A stretch of DNA of 64,000 bases from Candidatus Omnitrophota bacterium (GTDB lineage: Bacteria > Omnitrophota > Gorgyraeia > Zapsychrales > JANLHA01), in NCBI GenBank assembly GCA_040753435.1, contig JBFMEN010000062.1:6726-70725 (forward strand), given 5' to 3'. Below, one piece after another: positions 2,414-38,184 of the stretch. How positions within the stretch are numbered: the stretch's first letter is position 1; every line of letters begins with the position of its first letter. A program made the position numbers and the translations under genes. The notes below the pieces were generated by a model that saw nothing but the letters and a program-made list of their open reading frames with translations, had not been told where the DNA came from and searched no databases.

Positions 2414-2884
2414 ATGAAGATACGAGATTTTTTGTGCAGTGAGGCCGTGACGGCTGATCTGAAATCAACAACAAAAAAAGAAGTCATTCAGGAACTTGTC
2501 GATCTTCTTGTGAAAGCAGGGGCGGTTGAAAAAAAGATCCGCGGGAAACTCGTCGATATCTTGATGGCCAGAGAATCCCTGGGGTCCACTGCTATCGGGC
2601 AGGGGATTGCCATTCCGCACGGAAAGTGCGAGCAAGTCCTGAAATTGACCGCAGCCCTGGGGATCAGCAAGACCGGAGTGAATTTTGATTCTCTTGATGG
2701 TGAACCAGCTTACATTTTCTTTTTGCTCGTGGCGCCAGTTGATTCTTCAGGACCTCATCTGAAGGCCCTGGCCAGAATTTCCCGTCTGTTAAAGGATAAA
2801 TTCTACCGCGAAAATTTAAAGAGTTCAAAAGACGCCAAAGAAATCTTGAGCCTTTTGAACCAGGAAGACAATTCCGCTCAATAG
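2414..2884 (+). CDS. ptsN: PTS EIIA-Ntr type nitrogen regulatory protein
   Basis: AGGAGG RBS at 2399-2404, ATG 2414; translation contains GQGIAIPHGK (EIIA fructose/Ntr family phospho-His motif); the annotated ORF start at 2252 would run through tRNA-Gly and is rejected. Confidence 0.8.
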   Translation: MKIRDFLCSEAVTADLKSTTKKEVIQELVDLLVKAGAVEKKIRGKLVDILMARESLGSTAIGQGIAIPHGKCEQVLKLTAALGISKTGVNFDSLDGEPAYIFFLLVAPVDSSGPHLKALARISRLLKDKFYRENLKSSKDAKEILSLLNQEDNSAQ

Positions 2885-2887
2885 ACC

Positions 2888-4126
2888 ATGTCCAGTAACC
2901 TGATCAAATGGCTTTACCCCGGCATGAATATCAAACGCTGGTTATTCATGTCTTTGTTAGGTGTCGGAATTGTCGCGGGCGGCGCGATGACCCTGGCCGC
3001 GGAATATCAGTTTGTGCGTGTTTTCGGCGTGGTCATCGTCCTTTGCGGCGTGGTTATGATCGTTATGGGCATGGGGAAAATGATTGTTTCCCTGATCACC
3101 CTTTTTCTTCCCAAAGGCGAACGCGAACTTGTTAATATTCTTTACCAGCGGCGGTACCTTGAACGGGGACCAAAGATCGTATGTATCGGAGGCGGACACG
3201 GGCTTTCCCATCTGCTGTTAGGTTTGAAAGAATACACATCGAACCTGACGGCCATTGTAACGGTCGCCGACAGCGGGGGTTCCTCTGGAAGACTGAGGGA
3301 GGAATTCAATATTGTCGCCCCGGGGGACATTCGTAACTGTCTCGTTGCCCTGGCCGACGCCCCGGCGTTAATGGGCGAGCTTTTTCAGTTCCGGTTTTCC
3401 CAGGATTCGGCCCTGCAGGGACACAATTTCGGAAATTTATTTTTAACCGCTATGGTTCAGTTGACCGGCGATTTCGAAAAAGCGGTCCAGGAATCCTCAA
3501 AGGTTCTTGCTGTCCGCGGCAATGTCGTTCCGTCTACGGTTTCAAACGTCCATCTCGTCGCCGAATATGAAGACGGAAGCGTGACGAAAGGGGAGGCTGA
3601 TATCCCCAACAGCCGCTCCCGGATTAAACGCGTGTTCCTGAATCCCGATCATCCTCCTGCGACCAAACAAGCCCTGGATGCGATTGCAGAGGCAGACATT
3701 ATCGTTTTCGGCCCAGGGAGTCTTTATACCAGCATTATTCCGAATATCATTGTCGATGGAATGACCGAGGCGATTTGCGCTTCGAACGCGTTTAAAATTT
3801 ATGTCTGCAATGTCATGACCCAGCCGGGGGAAAGCGGCGGATATTCGGCCGGCGATCATTTAAAGGCGATTATCGATCATTCGGACAGGGATTTGCTTGA
3901 CGCATGTCTTATCAATAATGCGGCGGTTCCGGATGAAGCCCTGCGGCGTTACCGGACCGGCGATTCATTCCCGGTTGAAGCCGATTGTGAACGCATCCGG
4001 GAAATGGGATACAAGGTTTACGCGACGGATTTGCTTGAGGTGGAGAACTTCATCCGCCATGATTCGGAAAAACTGACAAAGGCCTTAATCAGGCTGATCG
4101 AGCAATATAGGGTCATAAAAAGATAA
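2888..4126 (+). CDS. YvcK/CofD-family (UPF0052, gluconeogenesis factor-like) protein with N-terminal two-helix membrane extension
   Basis: Core ...KIVCIGGGHGLSHLLLGLKEYTSNLTAIVTVADSGGSSGRLR... is the YvcK/CofD signature; N-terminal ~90 aa are strongly hydrophobic (two predicted TM helices). Confidence 0.8.
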   Translation: MSSNLIKWLYPGMNIKRWLFMSLLGVGIVAGGAMTLAAEYQFVRVFGVVIVLCGVVMIVMGMGKMIVSLITLFLPKGERELVNILYQRRYLERGPKIVCIGGGHGLSHLLLGLKEYTSNLTAIVTVADSGGSSGRLREEFNIVAPGDIRNCLVALADAPALMGELFQFRFSQDSALQGHNFGNLFLTAMVQLTGDFEKAVQESSKVLAVRGNVVPSTVSNVHLVAEYEDGSVTKGEADIPNSRSRIKRVFLNPDHPPATKQALDAIAEADIIVFGPGSLYTSIIPNIIVDGMTEAICASNAFKIYVCNVMTQPGESGGYSAGDHLKAIIDHSDRDLLDACLINNAAVPDEALRRYRTGDSFPVEADCERIREMGYKVYATDLLEVENFIRHDSEKLTKALIRLIEQYRVIKR

Positions 4127-4389: not shown

Positions 4390-6142
4390 AATAATTTTAA
4401 AAGGTATTCCCGCCGCACCAGGCATCACGATCGGTCCAGCCTATATATTGGATAAGCAGGAAATTATTGTCGCTCCGCGTGACATCGTTGAACAGGAGAT
4501 CCCTATTGAGATAGCGCGTTTCGAAGAGGCGCTGATCAAAACGCGCGAAGAAATCGCCGGGTTGAAACGCAAGATCACCGATGAAATGGGGGCCCAGCAC
4601 GCCCAGATCTTCGACGCCCATTTGCTCGCCCTTGAAGACCGCATGCTGATTGAGGACGTCATCAAGGGCATCCGCCAGCAAAAGCAGTCTGCGGAGTTCG
4701 TCTTTTCGCGTGTCCTGAAAAAATATATCAAAATATTTTCCGAGATGCAGGACGAGTATCTGCGCGACCGCATGGCGGACATCAACGATATCGGACGACG
4801 GGTTTTAAAAAACCTGATGGATGAAGACAAGCTCCACGAGCTCGACACCCTGACTGAGGATCTTATTATCATCGCCCATGACCTTTCTCCCTCTGACACG
4901 GTCTGCATGTTCAGGAAGAACATCCTGGCCTTTGCCACGGACGTGGGAAGCCGGACGTCTCATACCGCGATCATGGCCAAGTCGCTCGGGGTCCCTGCTG
5001 TCGTCGGATTGAAGGATGCCACATTGCGGATCACGAATCAGGACACCCTGATCGTCGACGGCAGGATGGGTCTGATTATCGTTCACCCTTCGGCCCGAAC
5101 CCTTGATATTTATAAACAGGAGCAGGAACGTCTGGTTTCGTTGCGCCACCGTTTTGACGATGTCCGCGAACTTCCGGCCCAGACTATTGACGGGCACCGG
5201 GTTGAAATCATTGCAAACCTCGAGGTCCCGGATGAGTTGAGTATCGTGAAACGGCAGGGCGCCGACGGTATCGGCTTGTACCGGACAGAATATTTTTATA
5301 TGAACAGGGCGGACTTGCCAACGGAAGATGAACAGCTCGAGGCTTACAGCCGTGTAGGGAGAGAGATGGGATCGAAACCGGTCACTATCCGCACCGTCGA
5401 TCTTGGAGGCGATAAATTTATTTCCAGTGTTCAGATCCCGCGGGACATGTATCCGTTTCTGGGATGGCGTGCCATTAAATTCTGCCTGGCCCGCCCCGAT
5501 ATTTTCAAGACCCAGCTGCGGGCGTTACTGCGCGCTTCGGTCAGCGAAAACATCCGTATCATGTATCCCATGGTTTCAGGCGTGGCCGAACTCCGTCAGG
5601 CCAACGCGGTCCTTGACGAGGCTAAAAAGGAACTGCGCGAGGAAGGGATTCCCTTTAACGAACAGATGCAAGTCGGAGTGATGATTGAACTGCCTTCGGC
5701 GGCGATAACCGCAGATTTGCTGGCAAAGGAAGCCGATTTCTTCAGCATCGGCACCAATGATTTGATTCAGTATACCCTGGCCGTAGATCGCGGCAACGAG
5801 CAGATGGCGGACTTCTATGAGCCGAGCCATCCGTCGGTTCTTCGTTTTATCAGAATTACGATTGAGGCCGCCCATCGGGCCAACATCCGTGTGGCTTTGT
5901 GCGGTGAAATGGCCAGCGAGCCTCATCTTGCCCTGTTGTTGCTGGGGCTCGGGCTGGATGAATTCAGCATGCCTCCGTTAAGCATGCTTCAGATCAAAAA
6001 ACTGATCTGTTCGATTAGACTGAGTGATGCCCGCGCTCTTGCGGAACAAGTCCTTGAGATGCAGACCGGGCATGAGATTGACGCGTTTTGCAAGAAGCGG
6101 GTAAAGGAAATGGCTCCCAATGTGTTTAAAATGGACGAGTGA
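4382..6142 (+). CDS. ptsI: Phosphoenolpyruvate-protein phosphotransferase (PTS enzyme I)
   Basis: 586 aa; N-terminal HPr-binding domain, phospho-His domain (GSRTSHTAIMAKSLGVPAVVG) and PEP-utilising C-terminal domain (NDLIQYTLAVDRGN). Confidence 0.9.
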   Translation: MNEIILKGIPAAPGITIGPAYILDKQEIIVAPRDIVEQEIPIEIARFEEALIKTREEIAGLKRKITDEMGAQHAQIFDAHLLALEDRMLIEDVIKGIRQQKQSAEFVFSRVLKKYIKIFSEMQDEYLRDRMADINDIGRRVLKNLMDEDKLHELDTLTEDLIIIAHDLSPSDTVCMFRKNILAFATDVGSRTSHTAIMAKSLGVPAVVGLKDATLRITNQDTLIVDGRMGLIIVHPSARTLDIYKQEQERLVSLRHRFDDVRELPAQTIDGHRVEIIANLEVPDELSIVKRQGADGIGLYRTEYFYMNRADLPTEDEQLEAYSRVGREMGSKPVTIRTVDLGGDKFISSVQIPRDMYPFLGWRAIKFCLARPDIFKTQLRALLRASVSENIRIMYPMVSGVAELRQANAVLDEAKKELREEGIPFNEQMQVGVMIELPSAAITADLLAKEADFFSIGTNDLIQYTLAVDRGNEQMADFYEPSHPSVLRFIRITIEAAHRANIRVALCGEMASEPHLALLLLGLGLDEFSMPPLSMLQIKKLICSIRLSDARALAEQVLEMQTGHEIDAFCKKRVKEMAPNVFKMDE

Positions 6143-32390: not shown

Positions 32391-32738
32391 ATGGACATCA
32401 TGATTGAATTAATGACGCGTGATACTGCACGCACATTTCCGCGCTTCCTTGAGGGTTTCCTTAAGGAAGAACGTTTGAAGGGACTGTTTTACGGGCCGGA
32501 CAATCGCGGAAGACGGCAGATTTTTATTCTGCTGGATGAAGGGCTGATGGATCACGCCCTAACGATGTTGGGCAATGACCAGGATATCCTGTGGTTCAGA
32601 GAGTTTGAGCGGATTGAACCGAATTTTCTAAAGGGGGTTAACCATTTGTTAAATCAGCCCGGAATGGCTGAAGAGGAGAAGCATTGGAGAGAAGATTATG
32701 AGTATCGTGAAACATTTTTACCGCGGAACTGGTGGTGA
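32391..32738 (+). CDS. Hypothetical protein (115 aa)
   Basis: ORF with AAAGGAAAAAAG upstream; no recognisable motif. Confidence 0.45.
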   Translation: MDIMIELMTRDTARTFPRFLEGFLKEERLKGLFYGPDNRGRRQIFILLDEGLMDHALTMLGNDQDILWFREFERIEPNFLKGVNHLLNQPGMAEEEKHWREDYEYRETFLPRNWW

Positions 32739-33945: not shown

Positions 33946-34038
33946 CTAGGGCCCCAGTGCCCAGGTGCCCAGCACCCCCAGGAATTGATTTTACGGGGGA
34001 CCGGGGAACCCGGGGATCAGGGGAACTGAGGAATAAAA

Positions 34039-35541
34039 ATGGACAAAGTCTTAATTTTCGATACGACCCTGCGTGACGGGGAGCAGGCCCCCGGCGCCAG
34101 TATGAATCAAGCAGAAAAGATGGAAGTCGCCCATGTCCTGGAACGGCTGGGCGTTGATATCATCGAAGCGGGATTTCCTGTCAGTTCTCCCGGAGATTTT
34201 GCTTCTGTTAAAATGATCGCCAAAGAGATCAAGAATGCGACTATCTGCGGGCTTGCCCGTTCGATGAAAAAAGATATCGATGCCGCCTACGATGCGGTCC
34301 GGGAAGCCAATAGCGGACGCATTCACGTGTTCATCGCCACTTCGCCTATCCACATGCAGCATAAGTTAAAGAAGAATCCTGAAGAGGTCTTGCAGATGGC
34401 GATTGAAGCTGTCAAATATGCGAAGTCCAAAATCGCCGACGTGGAATTTTCAGCTGAAGATGCGACTCGCAGCAATCCGGAGTTTTTATACCGGATTGTT
34501 GAGCAGGTGATCGAGGCCGGCGCTGTAACGGTCAATATCCCTGATACCGTCGGGTATACCAATCCCCAGGAATTCGCCGCCTTGATTTCCGGAATCATGA
34601 ACAATGTTCCCAATATCGGCCGGGCTATTATATCCGTTCATTGTCACGATGACCTGGGATTGTCGGTAGCCAATTCCCTGGCCGCTGTTAAAAACGGCGC
34701 CCGTCAAGTGGAGTGTACGATCAACGGGATCGGAGAGCGGGCTGGAAATGCGGCGATGGAAGAAATCGTCATGGCGTTAAAAACACGCAGAGATTATTTC
34801 GGGGTTGATTCAGGGATCAATACCAAAGAAATAACCAAGGCTTCACGTTTGGTGTCCAAGTTAACCGGATTTCCTGTCCCTCCGAACAAGGCTATTGTCG
34901 GAGCCAATGCTTTTGCACATGAATCCGGTATTCATCAGCACGGAATTTTGAATGAGCGGTTGACGTATGAGATCATGAAAGCCGAGGATGTAGGCGTGGT
35001 CGGCTGCGGCCTCGTTTTGGGAAAGCATTCCGGGCGACACGCCTTTAAGGCGAGACTGATTCAGTTGGGTCTGGAGCTCACTGAAGACCAGATTGACCAG
35101 GCCTTCGAGCGCTTTAAAGACTTGGCCGATAAAAAAAAGGAAGTCTTTGATAAAGATATTTTGGCTATTGTTGAGGATGAATTTGAAACGAATGCCGAAC
35201 CTGTTTGGGTTCTTGAGGATTTAAAGACTACCAGCGGCCTGAATATGAAACCGCTGGTCACTGTGGTTTTAAAATCAAAAGACAAAATTTTTGCGAAAGA
35301 ATCTTCAGGGGACGGTCCGGTCGACGCTTGTTATAAGGCGATTGATGCAGTGACAAACGTTTCCGGAACATTACTTGATTATTCCATTCAATCAGTAACA
35401 AAAGGCAAGGACGCGATGGGTGAGGTGACGGTACGCGTTAATTTTAACGATAAAACCGTTATTGCCCATGGAGCCAGTACCGATATTATCGCGGCTTCGG
35501 CCAAGGCGTATATTAACGCGTTGAATAAAGTGGTAGCATAG
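34039..35541 (+). CDS. leuA: 2-isopropylmalate synthase (or closely related citramalate synthase)
   Basis: LIFDTTLRDGEQAPGASM, HCHDDLGLSVANSLAAV, and C-terminal LeuA dimerisation/regulatory domain; 500 aa. Confidence 0.88.
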   Translation: MDKVLIFDTTLRDGEQAPGASMNQAEKMEVAHVLERLGVDIIEAGFPVSSPGDFASVKMIAKEIKNATICGLARSMKKDIDAAYDAVREANSGRIHVFIATSPIHMQHKLKKNPEEVLQMAIEAVKYAKSKIADVEFSAEDATRSNPEFLYRIVEQVIEAGAVTVNIPDTVGYTNPQEFAALISGIMNNVPNIGRAIISVHCHDDLGLSVANSLAAVKNGARQVECTINGIGERAGNAAMEEIVMALKTRRDYFGVDSGINTKEITKASRLVSKLTGFPVPPNKAIVGANAFAHESGIHQHGILNERLTYEIMKAEDVGVVGCGLVLGKHSGRHAFKARLIQLGLELTEDQIDQAFERFKDLADKKKEVFDKDILAIVEDEFETNAEPVWVLEDLKTTSGLNMKPLVTVVLKSKDKIFAKESSGDGPVDACYKAIDAVTNVSGTLLDYSIQSVTKGKDAMGEVTVRVNFNDKTVIAHGASTDIIAASAKAYINALNKVVA

Positions 35542-35547
35542 CTAAAG

Positions 35548-36001
35548 ATACAAGATACAAGTTACAAGAAAAACCCAGAGTACCCCGAATAGAAAAATTA
35601 ATAAGAAGGGTGAAATGGGAGAGAATCAAGGGTATAGAAAATTAATTGTCTGGCAAAAATCAAATTCGCTGGCACTAAAAATTTATAAAATTACACGTAA
35701 GTTTCCGAAATAAGAAGTTTGCGGTATTATATCTCAATTAAGAAGGGCCGCTTTATCTGTACCAACTAACCTGGTCGAAGGACATGGAAGGCATAACCCA
35801 AAAGAGATGAAGAGATTTGTAACGATTGCCTTGGGCTCGTTAGTTGAAACGGAATATTTACTTAATTTTTCTCAAGATTTAGAATTTTTATCAGAAACAG
35901 AATATGATCAGATTGAACATGATCGTTGTGAAGTTGGAAAGCTTTTGTTTGGTTTGTTTCAGAAATTATAATTCTTTTATTTTTTTCTTGTAACTTGTAA
36001 C
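35548..36001. repeat. Inverted-repeat-bounded insertion carrying a four-helix-bundle (23S-rRNA-IVS-type) gene
   Basis: Perfect 16-bp IR caagttacaagaaaaa (35558-73) / tttttcttgtaacttg (35982-97), each extended by 7-mer tandem repeats (atacaag x2 + ttacaag; cttgtaa x2). Confidence 0.55.
35615..35971 (+). pseudogene. Four-helix-bundle protein (TIGR02436-type, 'S23 ribosomal protein' family) interrupted by in-frame TAA at 35711-35713
   Basis: MGENQGYRKLIVWQKSNSLALKIYKITRKFPK*EVCGIISQLRRAALSVPTNLVEGHGRHNPKEMKRFVTIALGSLVETEYLL.. ; the stop sits where family members have Glu (GAA->TAA); frame continuous to TAA 35969-71. Confidence 0.7.
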
Positions 36002-36016
36002 TATTCATAAAAAATA

Positions 36017-36883
36017 ATGCCAAATAAAGTAACCACCTACGGCCTCATTGGTTTTCCTCTTGGCCACAGTCTTTCCCCATGTATGCATAATACAGCGTTC
36101 CGTGCCCTGGATGTCCCTGCAGTCTATGAGTTATTTCCATTGAAGGAGCACGAGGTCGAGCCTTTTATCAAACACCTTCGTGACAAGGATTGCCATATAT
36201 TCGGAGTGAATGTTACAGTTCCTTATAAAGAGAAGGTAATGCCGTTACTGGATGCGTTATCCCCATTTGCCGAAAAGGCCGGAGCTGTCAATACGATCGT
36301 GGTTGATAAAAACAGAAGGCTTACCGGGCATAATACCGATGGCCCCGGGTTTATGTCCCATTTAGCGGAACTCGGTTTTGATATAAGCGGGAAACGGGTT
36401 TCATTAATTGGAGCGGGAGGCGCTGCGCGCGCCATTATTGCTGTCTTATGTCTGATGGATCAAAGGCCGGGAAGCGTTTTTGTTTATGATATCGATAGCG
36501 AGAAGGCTGATAATCTCGTGGCCGATCTTGGCTCCCGGATGGACACTTCAATTGTCCAGGTCGTTCGAAGTATCGATGACCTGAATATTGAAATTGCTGA
36601 CTTGCTCATTAATGCCACACCGGTCGGCCTGAAGTCTTCAGACCCGGTTCTTTTTGAGAAAGAACTGTTGCATCCGGATATGCTTGTGTATGATTTGATC
36701 TATAACCCCAGAGAGACAAAACTGCTGGCTATGGCCAGGGAGCGGGGCGCGAGGATCTCGAATGGTCTCGGAATGCTTTTTTATCAGGGTGTTCTTGCAT
36801 TCGAGCACTGGGCTGGTTATGAAGTTATGCCTGCGATCCGCGAACAGATGAGAATGAGTTTGGAGATTGGGGAAGTGATTTAA
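36017..36883 (+). CDS. aroE: Shikimate dehydrogenase
   Basis: YGLIGFPLGHSLSP..., GAGGAARA NADP-binding loop; 288 aa. Confidence 0.88.
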   Translation: MPNKVTTYGLIGFPLGHSLSPCMHNTAFRALDVPAVYELFPLKEHEVEPFIKHLRDKDCHIFGVNVTVPYKEKVMPLLDALSPFAEKAGAVNTIVVDKNRRLTGHNTDGPGFMSHLAELGFDISGKRVSLIGAGGAARAIIAVLCLMDQRPGSVFVYDIDSEKADNLVADLGSRMDTSIVQVVRSIDDLNIEIADLLINATPVGLKSSDPVLFEKELLHPDMLVYDLIYNPRETKLLAMARERGARISNGLGMLFYQGVLAFEHWAGYEVMPAIREQMRMSLEIGEVI

Positions 36884-36983
36884 ACAGCGAAGAGCATAGA
36901 GCGAAGAGTGAGTGTAGAGCCAAGCGTCCCATAGCTTTTCGTTGGTCGCTTTTTCTTAAAGTCATAAGCACAAAGGAGACAAG

Positions 36984-37991: not shown

Positions 37992-37995
37992 GGCA

Positions 37996-38172
37996 GTAAC
38001 AAGTAACAAGTAACAAGTTACAACTGACAAGAAAATAAAAAGAAACAGAGATAATAAAAATAGTGATATTTGATGGAGCTGGTAGTAAGTAGAAAGTTTA
38101 AAGAACAAGATCCGCAAATTCATAAGCTTTTATTTGTTTTTTCATTCTTGTTGCTTGTAACATGCAACTTGT
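37996..38172. repeat. Miniature inverted-repeat element related to the 35548-36001 element (no ORF)
   Basis: Left: (gtaacaa)x3-gttacaactgacaagaaaataaaaag; right: ttttcattcttgttgcttgtaacatgcaacttgt; shares ACAAGTTACAA / ACAAGAAAA cores with the other element; ~105 bp non-coding interior. Confidence 0.45.
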
Positions 38173-38184
38173 CACTTTAATAAT

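Follow-up and report, generated by a model that had tools for sequence, protein, structure and literature searches.

A probable decayed four-helix-bundle cassette with inverted heptamer arms in the leuA-aroE spacer of a Candidatus Omnitrophota genome

The window analyzed here is a 64,000-nucleotide (64-kb) stretch of contig JBFMEN010000062.1 (positions 6,726 to 70,725) from the Candidatus Omnitrophota bacterium assembly GCA_040753435.1. Between leuA and aroE it carries an inverted repeat of tandem heptamers that encloses an open reading frame (ORF) for a four-helix-bundle (4HB) protein of the PF05635/TIGR02436 family (35545-36002). We read the locus, at a probability of roughly 0.72, as a decayed copy of a 4HB cassette of the intervening-sequence (IVS) type, ~450 base pairs (bp) long, without a promoter of its own and lying in the ilvC-leuA-aroE-pppA-aroK operon.

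The leuA-aroE element and its reading frame

The element consists of the following parts (positions in the window; nt, nucleotides):
35545-35573, + strand: 5' arm, made of AAGATAC/AAGTTAC heptamers (GNTACAA units, 3.6 copies) and then an A-run
35574-35614, + strand: leader between the arm and the ATG, with a Shine-Dalgarno-like purine-rich AGAAGGG at 35604-35610, 5-11 nt before the ATG
35615-35971, + strand: 4HB ORF of 118 codons plus a TAA stop, with one nonsense codon; read as a pseudogene
35711-35713, + strand: in-frame TAA at codon 33, where relatives have GAA/GAG (Glu) or Asp; a single-base nonsense change
35975-36002, + strand: 3' arm, made of a T-run and then CTTGTAA heptamers (2.3 copies); the inverted-repeat part is 35982-36002

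Over 18 nt (TACAAGTTACAAGAAAAA, at 35556-35573 and 35982-35999) the two arms match perfectly, and the inverted repeat reaches 21 nt when one mismatch is allowed (35553-35573 and 35982-36002), with 408 nt between the arms. With loops of up to ~680 nt considered, these 21-nt arms form the top-scoring inverted repeat of the whole window. The 13-mer core of the repeat, with at most one mismatch, occurs three times in the window, while 0.02 occurrences are expected. Both arms are periodic: the tandem repeat at 35545-35569 has a period of 7 and 3.6 copies, and its inverted counterpart at 35987-36002 has the same period and 2.3 copies. The A-run on the 5' side and the T-run on the 3' side lengthen the complementarity, and the two arms are predicted to form a closing helix of 24 bp in + strand RNA.

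The ORF matches PF05635 with an E-value of 1.4e-34 (118.9 bits, cut-off 33.8) over residues 8-112 of 118, and TIGR02436 with an E-value of 1.1e-31 (109.2 bits, cut-off 24). The ORF retains all 25 family-invariant residues, without a frameshift. It also has the RxxxSxxxNxxE motif described for the 4HB family (PMC3936711), as R44, S48, N52, and E55. Alignment with 25 relatives showed that two near-invariant columns are altered, Y36C and W112F. The frame is interrupted by the TAA at codon 33, a column that is E or D in 25/25 of the aligned relatives. GAA is converted to TAA by one substitution, and with this stop only a peptide of 32 residues can be made. These results agree with the first-pass annotation, which had described a perfect 16-bp inverted repeat with 7-mer tandem repeats (the perfect part is now 18 nt) and a TIGR02436-type gene intact except for one TAA, and had suggested a recent single-base inactivation.

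Of the 46 long ORFs in the window, 23 terminate with TAA, the 4HB gene itself among them, so the codon is not reassigned. As TAA is the commonest genuine stop there, the window copy is, judged from its sequence, an ordinary nonsense pseudogene unless the TAA is an assembly error. The inactivation was probably recent, since the stem is intact and so is the remainder of the ORF.

Both flanking genes, leuA (HMGL-like and LeuA_dimer domains) and the shikimate dehydrogenase gene aroE, are on the + strand. The spacer, from the end of the leuA stop at 35541 to the aroE ATG at 36017, measures 475 nt. By protein search, the window's LeuA is 100% identical to a protein of a Candidatus Omnitrophota MAG (metagenome-assembled genome) at NCBI, encoded on a contig of 73.5 kb. 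We found no convincing promoter belonging to the element: the best upstream + strand candidate scored no more than 9/12, and candidate counts were near shuffle expectation. A search for a terminator of its own likewise gave nothing above chance, and no + strand T-run follows the 3' arm. A six-frame profile search of the window recovered this one 4HB copy only. The Rfam search gave no family for the element or for the hairpins described below; three transfer RNAs (tRNAs) were the only matches in the window, and no ribosomal RNA (rRNA) match was found anywhere in it. Three other kinds of element were ruled out as explanations of the locus: an integron cassette (there is no attC-type single site), a CRISPR array (there are no spacers), and a diversity-generating retroelement (there is no reverse transcriptase).

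4HB loci in other genomes

Genes for 4HB proteins in many phyla usually sit as oriented cassettes with inverted 7-8-base repeat arrays, mostly outside rRNA. This picture comes from a scan with one genome per species, which gave 80 homologous loci encoding proteins 49-61% identical to the query. The loci are from Omnitrophota, Planctomycetota, Nitrospirota, Elusimicrobiota, Ignavibacteria, Acidobacteriota, and others, and 72 of them could be tested. For the inverted-repeat test, the 150 nt upstream of each gene were compared with the 150 nt downstream at a score of at least 11, and shifted windows were used as controls.

A flanking inverted repeat at this score was found in 49/72 of the 4HB loci compared with 4/238 of the shifted controls, and the arms have a period of 7 in 15 loci and of 8 in 29. 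Tandem 7/8-mer arrays within 150 nt were present in 56/72 loci, as against 11/245 control windows. The arms are strictly polar. CACAAG occurs 62 times upstream of the gene (in 29 loci) and once downstream, and CTTGTG occurs 69 times downstream of 4HB genes. The gene is co-directional with both neighbors in 54 loci and opposed to both in a single one, a 54:1 ratio that exceeds what typical leading-strand gene bias would give. Gaps between the 4HB gene and the neighboring ORFs are ~80 nt. The window element shows the same arrangement, with (GNTACAA)n upstream, (CTTGTAA)n downstream, a period of 7, and an orientation shared with leuA and aroE.

Most of the loci lie between protein genes. Among the first 20, the nearest homologs, there is no locus with rRNA and one with a tRNA immediately upstream. 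The view that the family is normally found inside 23S rRNA, as put forward in the first-pass annotation, therefore has to be given up for these homologs.

Two of the loci belong to one metagenome-assembled genome (MAG) of Ignavibacteria (L016, 2961-3394, and L019, 2976-3394) and are 99.3% identical over 415 nt that include the arms and the gene. The identity starts within the left array, in which the two differ in the number of repeat units, and runs as far as the right arm's outer edge; outside this stretch the two loci are unrelated in sequence. Neither unit showed a target-site duplication. The L016 cassette is followed by further repeat arrays, as if it were nested in another hairpin.

Scanning metagenomes for the window's arm sequence at cassette spacing returned one contig (L085). 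On this contig, which is from an unrelated organism, (GTTACAA)n / (TTGTAAC)n arms enclose an intact, divergent 4HB gene, and the cassette lies between sdhA and sdhB. A different layout was seen in the Nitrospirae locus L067, where octamer arrays of (GCTTGNNN)n at ~2840-3000 and ~3340-3470 beside the 4HB gene are direct and not inverted; this 4HB gene has an in-frame TAG.

Single in-frame stops are carried by 3/80 of the related loci, which come from other assemblies, and each stop is a change of one base: CAA to TAA at a shared Gln column in two loci, and TGG to TAG at a Trp in the third. None falls at the codon-33 position. Copies broken by a nonsense codon thus recur within the family. The two loci with the stop at the same conserved Gln column are from unrelated organisms, a Gemmatimonadota (L060) and an Omnitrophota (L066). 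With four nonsense events in all, this may be a coincidence.

The library of papers that we searched contained none linking 4HB genes outside rRNA to flanking tandem-repeat arms.

Operon relatives and hairpins without a gene

The gene order ilvC-leuA-aroE-pppA-aroK is kept in eight relatives whose LeuA is 78-81% identical to that of the window, and dprA-topA-xerC come next where the contig reaches that far. Seven of the eight (L081, L082, L083, L086, L087, L089, and L090) have only a short leuA-aroE spacer of 26-87 nt without a 4HB gene, in line with the initial proposal that an IVS-type insertion has landed in a protein-coding intergenic spacer. At this site L082 has a 16-bp hairpin with related CAAGA/TCTTG units.

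The leuA-aroE spacer of L088 (JGI 3300038675) holds a gene-less hairpin with the window's GTTACAA units and a loop of ~135 nt (L088 2244-2432). Its left arm reads TTACAAG TTACAGG TAACAAG TGACATG, and its right arm consists of five copies of TTGTAAC. The aroE-pppA spacer of the same genome (3300-3745) contains an intact PF05635 gene of 119 residues, 37% identical to the window copy, between (GTGAACN)n and (NGTTCAC)n arms. L090 has these arms at the same aroE-pppA site (3827-4007) with the gene absent. Comparison of L088, L090, and the window thus gives two cases within this operon in which the same arms occupy one site both with the gene and without it.

Judged by LeuA identity, the window falls outside the other eight genomes, so the arm units that it shares with L088 are not simply explained by one ancestral insertion. 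Simple vertical inheritance of the leuA-aroE element was rejected, as the window lies outside by LeuA and yet has its arm units in common with L088 only. Judged from these sequences, repeated gain, loss or replacement is probably behind the distribution of the element.

Two further inverted arrays in the window have related units and no gene:
37995-38180, + strand: gene-less element in the pppA-aroK spacer, with (GTAACAA)n at 37995-38031 (5.3 copies), (CTTGTNN)n at 38147-38180, and a loop of ~115 nt
1674-1754, + strand: short hairpin between frr and tRNA-Lys, GAAACAC GTTGCAA GACACAA facing CTTGTGT CATGTGC CTTGTGA (GNNACAA type)

In unit type and polarity, the element at 37995-38180 matches the 4HB cassette that lies 2 kb upstream of it. 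The early suggestion to look for other copies of the inverted repeat can be answered only in part from the window: same-type (GNNACAA)n inverted arrays exist at these two places, and an identical second copy does not.

The short hairpin and a second one at 1836-1985, between tRNA-Lys and tRNA-Leu, bracket tRNA-Lys (1758-1833). The second hairpin has a different unit, (TAAGNAN)n, with TAAGAAA/TAAGTAG facing four copies of TTTCTTA. The whole stretch folds far better than its shuffles (z = -5.1), and the two hairpins resemble processing stems of a tRNA transcript. An Endomicrobia contig (L022) echoes these tRNA-adjacent hairpins, as its tRNA at 1480-1552 ends ~70 nt upstream of a 4HB gene.

Tandem 7-8-mers also make up two further operon spacers of the window, both with a partial potential to form hairpins. 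In the ilvC-leuA spacer (33946-34038) the units are (NNCCCAG)n, opposite (GGGGANC)n (z = -1.4), and in the aroE-pppA spacer (36884-36983) they are (AGCGAAG)n (z = -2.2). Several operon spacers in the window and the relatives fold as 7-8-mer hairpins without a gene (z from -1.8 to -3.6). The stronger statement that every spacer has a hairpin was dropped, because folding showed several spacers without one.

We also considered whether the gene-less elements are internal-deletion derivatives of 4HB cassettes and rejected this, as their loops align to cassette interiors no better than dinucleotide shuffles. The observed scores were reached by 27/500, 424/500, and 276/500 shuffles, and only the arms are in common. 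The loop at 37995-38180, which had no match in the six-frame profile search, bears a weak resemblance to the 3' end of the 4HB ORF (the score reached by 27/500 shuffles). The gene-less hairpins may be decayed cassettes, non-autonomous partners or native punctuation.

Upstream of ilvC, the window has a small ORF (32391-32738) with a conserved C-terminal motif, ..W.D.EY..TFLPRN... The motif is common to L081 (~2866-3006) and L082 (~4635-4799), and the ORF has no Pfam match on record in these relatives. L081 and L082 also have conserved non-coding stretches upstream of this small ORF; no Rfam match was found in the window at E-values up to 0.1.

Candidate explanations and known systems

The explanation that we prefer for the window locus is a cassette that, from 5' to 3', would consist of a GNNACAA heptamer array, a short leader with a ribosome-binding site, a PF05635 ORF, and an inverted (TTGTNNC)n array. 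The element would be transcribed by read-through from the operon, because the 4HB genes are co-oriented with their host genes at 54:1 and the element has no promoter of its own. In the transcript the arms would pair into a double-stranded RNA helix of ~24 bp. By analogy with the heptamer-stemmed 23S rRNA IVS of Coxiella, this helix is a putative substrate of ribonuclease III (RNase III), for which ~24 bp is long enough. Cleavage would free the 4HB RNA and split the leuA and aroE parts of the transcript, and such processing of the window element is what the analogy leads us to infer. The protein step is dead in the window copy as far as its sequence tells.

Several results weigh against this explanation. 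The whole element folds only modestly better than its shuffles (z = -1.8), and a test of arm wobble for structure in the sense RNA, made on 65 loci, gave no clear preference (97 G.U-type and 76 A.C-type mismatches). No target-site duplication was seen at the arm ends of the leuA-aroE element, and the 64-kb window has no second identical copy of the inverted repeat. The sharing of arm units by the window and L088 only is at odds with the pattern of LeuA similarity. Finally, the window sequence is present in a single assembly.

The existence of only one assembly bears directly on the nonsense codon, which might stem from an error in assembly or consensus calling, or represent a minor variant in the population, with the gene intact in the cell. 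An ORF that is otherwise perfect, with its 25 invariant residues and no frameshift, between arms that are perfect over 18 nt would fit with such an error. We nevertheless find it quite unlikely, as the near-invariant residues Y36C and W112F are altered as well, 3/80 related loci from other assemblies have single in-frame stops of their own, and decay of the S23p ORF is documented in Coxiella. In addition, G-to-T miscalls are rare in short-read consensus sequences. The first-pass annotation had also offered programmed readthrough or recoding at the TAA, by which the full-length protein would be made, and this appears extremely improbable. The reading frame does not change across the stop and a weak hairpin (35696-35723) overlaps codon 33, but such an overlapping hairpin is expected by chance (0.7 per shuffle). 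Moreover, 0/25 relatives have a stop at the codon-33 column, the three other family stops are at other positions, and the same codon terminates half of the window's long ORFs, the 4HB gene's own end included. The stop context is TAA-G, which is an efficient termination context in E. coli.

Two further alternatives concern the arms. They could act in DNA, as terminal inverted repeats or hairpins of a non-autonomous element resembling miniature inverted-repeat transposable elements (MITEs) or repetitive extragenic palindromic (REP) sequences, with the enzyme encoded elsewhere and the RNA stem as a by-product. The near-identical unit at two loci of one Ignavibacteria genome, with its right edge at the outer arm edge, speaks for this, as do the patchy presence in orthologous spacers, the gene-less versions with the same arms, and the IS110/IS481 insertions at fixed distances from paired octamer arrays in Geobacter metallireducens. 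It is weakened by the lack of a visible target-site duplication at the window element or L016/L019 and of a transposase adjoining the element in the window. The 54:1 bias toward the direction of host transcription suggests that selection or function acts on the transcript. We regard the DNA-level reading as somewhat unlikely. It and the cassette explanation are compatible and do not exclude each other, and a role of the arms in mobility at the DNA level may coexist with a role in RNA. It is also conceivable that the periodic hairpins are native operon punctuation, which processes, stabilizes or terminates transcripts, and that a 4HB gene landed in the loop of one of them, so that the arms do not belong to the gene. 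This would account for the 7-8-mer hairpins without a gene in several operon spacers of the window and the relatives, and for the 16-bp hairpin with CAAGA/TCTTG units at the same site in L082. We consider it unlikely, since the arms were duplicated together with the gene in L016/L019, 4HB genes of many phyla share the arm polarity and the CACAAG-type core, and the unrelated organism of L085 has a divergent 4HB gene within the same GTTACAA arms.

The decayed IVS-type cassette is thus retained for the window locus, and from it a broader proposal can be drawn up. A widespread cassette, promoter-less and strictly oriented, with inverted arrays of 7-8-nt tandem repeats might have PF05635 genes as its cargo. 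This cassette may colonize transcribed spacers (operons and tRNA clusters) as well as rRNA helices, with the classical 23S IVS as one landing site. Gene-less paired arrays, such as those at 37995-38180 and in the relatives, may be non-autonomous or decayed cassettes, and the same may possibly hold for the Geobacter sites and for heptamer hairpins of the short tandemly repeated repetitive (STRR) type. The oligomeric 4HB protein may recognize the repeat arrays in RNA or single-stranded DNA, possibly with one subunit per unit. Taken as a whole, the proposal is tentative and less likely than not to hold.

The origin and purpose of ORF-bearing rRNA IVSs and the function of PF05635, a very large family, have been open since the early 1990s, and the meaning of tandem heptamers in cyanobacteria, Beggiatoa, and Geobacter is likewise a standing question. 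The comparison made here yields a testable unit, consisting of the gene, polar 7-8-mer arms, and read-through transcription from the host, which many phyla have, for the most part outside rRNA. Should the stems be sites for RNase III, the cassettes would cut polycistronic messenger RNAs (mRNAs) at defined points and thereby affect operon expression. For annotation, the cassette would account for many of the short genes labeled "hypothetical" and of the unusual intergenic repeats seen in MAGs. The window copy alone adds little as it is a recently killed member, and the general cassette architecture is the interesting part.

Among known systems, the closest are the 23S IVSs with an S23p ORF, found in Coxiella burnetii and also in Leptospira, Xanthomonas, and Brucella, whose protein belongs to PF05635 like that of the window element. 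The Coxiella IVS is 428 nt long and its inverted ends form a stem, with three tandem GACAGAT heptamers, variable in number between strains, in the 5' region ahead of the S23p ORF (PMC4990558). Its excision by RNase III has been shown experimentally, with a cut at the first repeat, and the S23p ORF is decaying by reductive evolution and apparently untranslated (PMC4990558). The likeness to an IVS drawn in the first-pass annotation is well matched by this layout: a sense ORF within a long stem of inverted ends, heptamers on the 5' side, a length of ~430-450 nt, and an ORF prone to decay. The two differ in location, as the IVSs sit in helix 25 or 45 of 23S rRNA and the window element in the leuA-aroE mRNA spacer, and in the heptamer unit, which is GACAGAT in Coxiella and GNTACAA in the window.

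The nearest solved relatives by sequence are XCC0516 (PDB 2GSC; E = 2.5e-15), which has been reported as a homopentamer, and a Bacteroides protein (PDB 2RLD; E = 1.3e-6). Both are intact, free-standing 4HB proteins of unknown function, whereas the window homolog is truncated at codon 33. A more distant relative in fold is the Avd protein of diversity-generating retroelements, which PF05635 has been described as resembling (PMC10053308). The window ORF matches the bAvd family PF22296 with an E-value of 4e-5. It was rejected as an Avd, since its NF033474 score of 23.9 bits falls short of the cut-off of 80, there is neither a reverse transcriptase nor template/variable repeats next to it, and its neighbors are leuA and aroE.

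MITE and REP hairpins, such as the Correia elements of Neisseria, are small, bounded by inverted repeats, and found in operon spacers, and their transcripts fold into hairpins, which can be cut by RNase III and affect mRNA stability. Such elements have no ORF, uniform terminal repeats, and target-site duplications. Unlike them, the 4HB cassette has arms of tandem 7-8-mers and an ORF as its usual cargo, and no duplication was seen.

Paired inverted arrays of tandem 7-8-mers, with 3-5 units at variable distance, were described in Geobacter metallireducens as putative "global regulator binding sites" of classes 1-3 (PMC2700814). These arrays often lie between operon genes, e.g., nifD-nifK, proB-proA, and trpB2-trpC, with GTTGCTYN as an octamer, and often have IS110 (ISGme8) or IS481 (ISGme9) at a fixed distance (PMC2700814). 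This suggests that arrays of this type are insertion targets. These apparently gene-less pairs resemble the elements at 37995-38180 and in the relatives. Intergenic heptamer arrays are also found in Beggiatoaceae, cyanobacteria, and Bacteroidetes (PMC4679880). The unit sequences of the Geobacter arrays and of the cyanobacterial and Beggiatoa heptamers (STRR, TAACTGA) differ from those of the window, and the reports on all three read the arrays as protein-binding or translational signals, with no link to 4HB genes. The 4HB IVS is an already known kind of element, of which the window locus is a new, dead member, and what is added here is the general picture of an oriented cassette with gene-less counterparts at the same sites.

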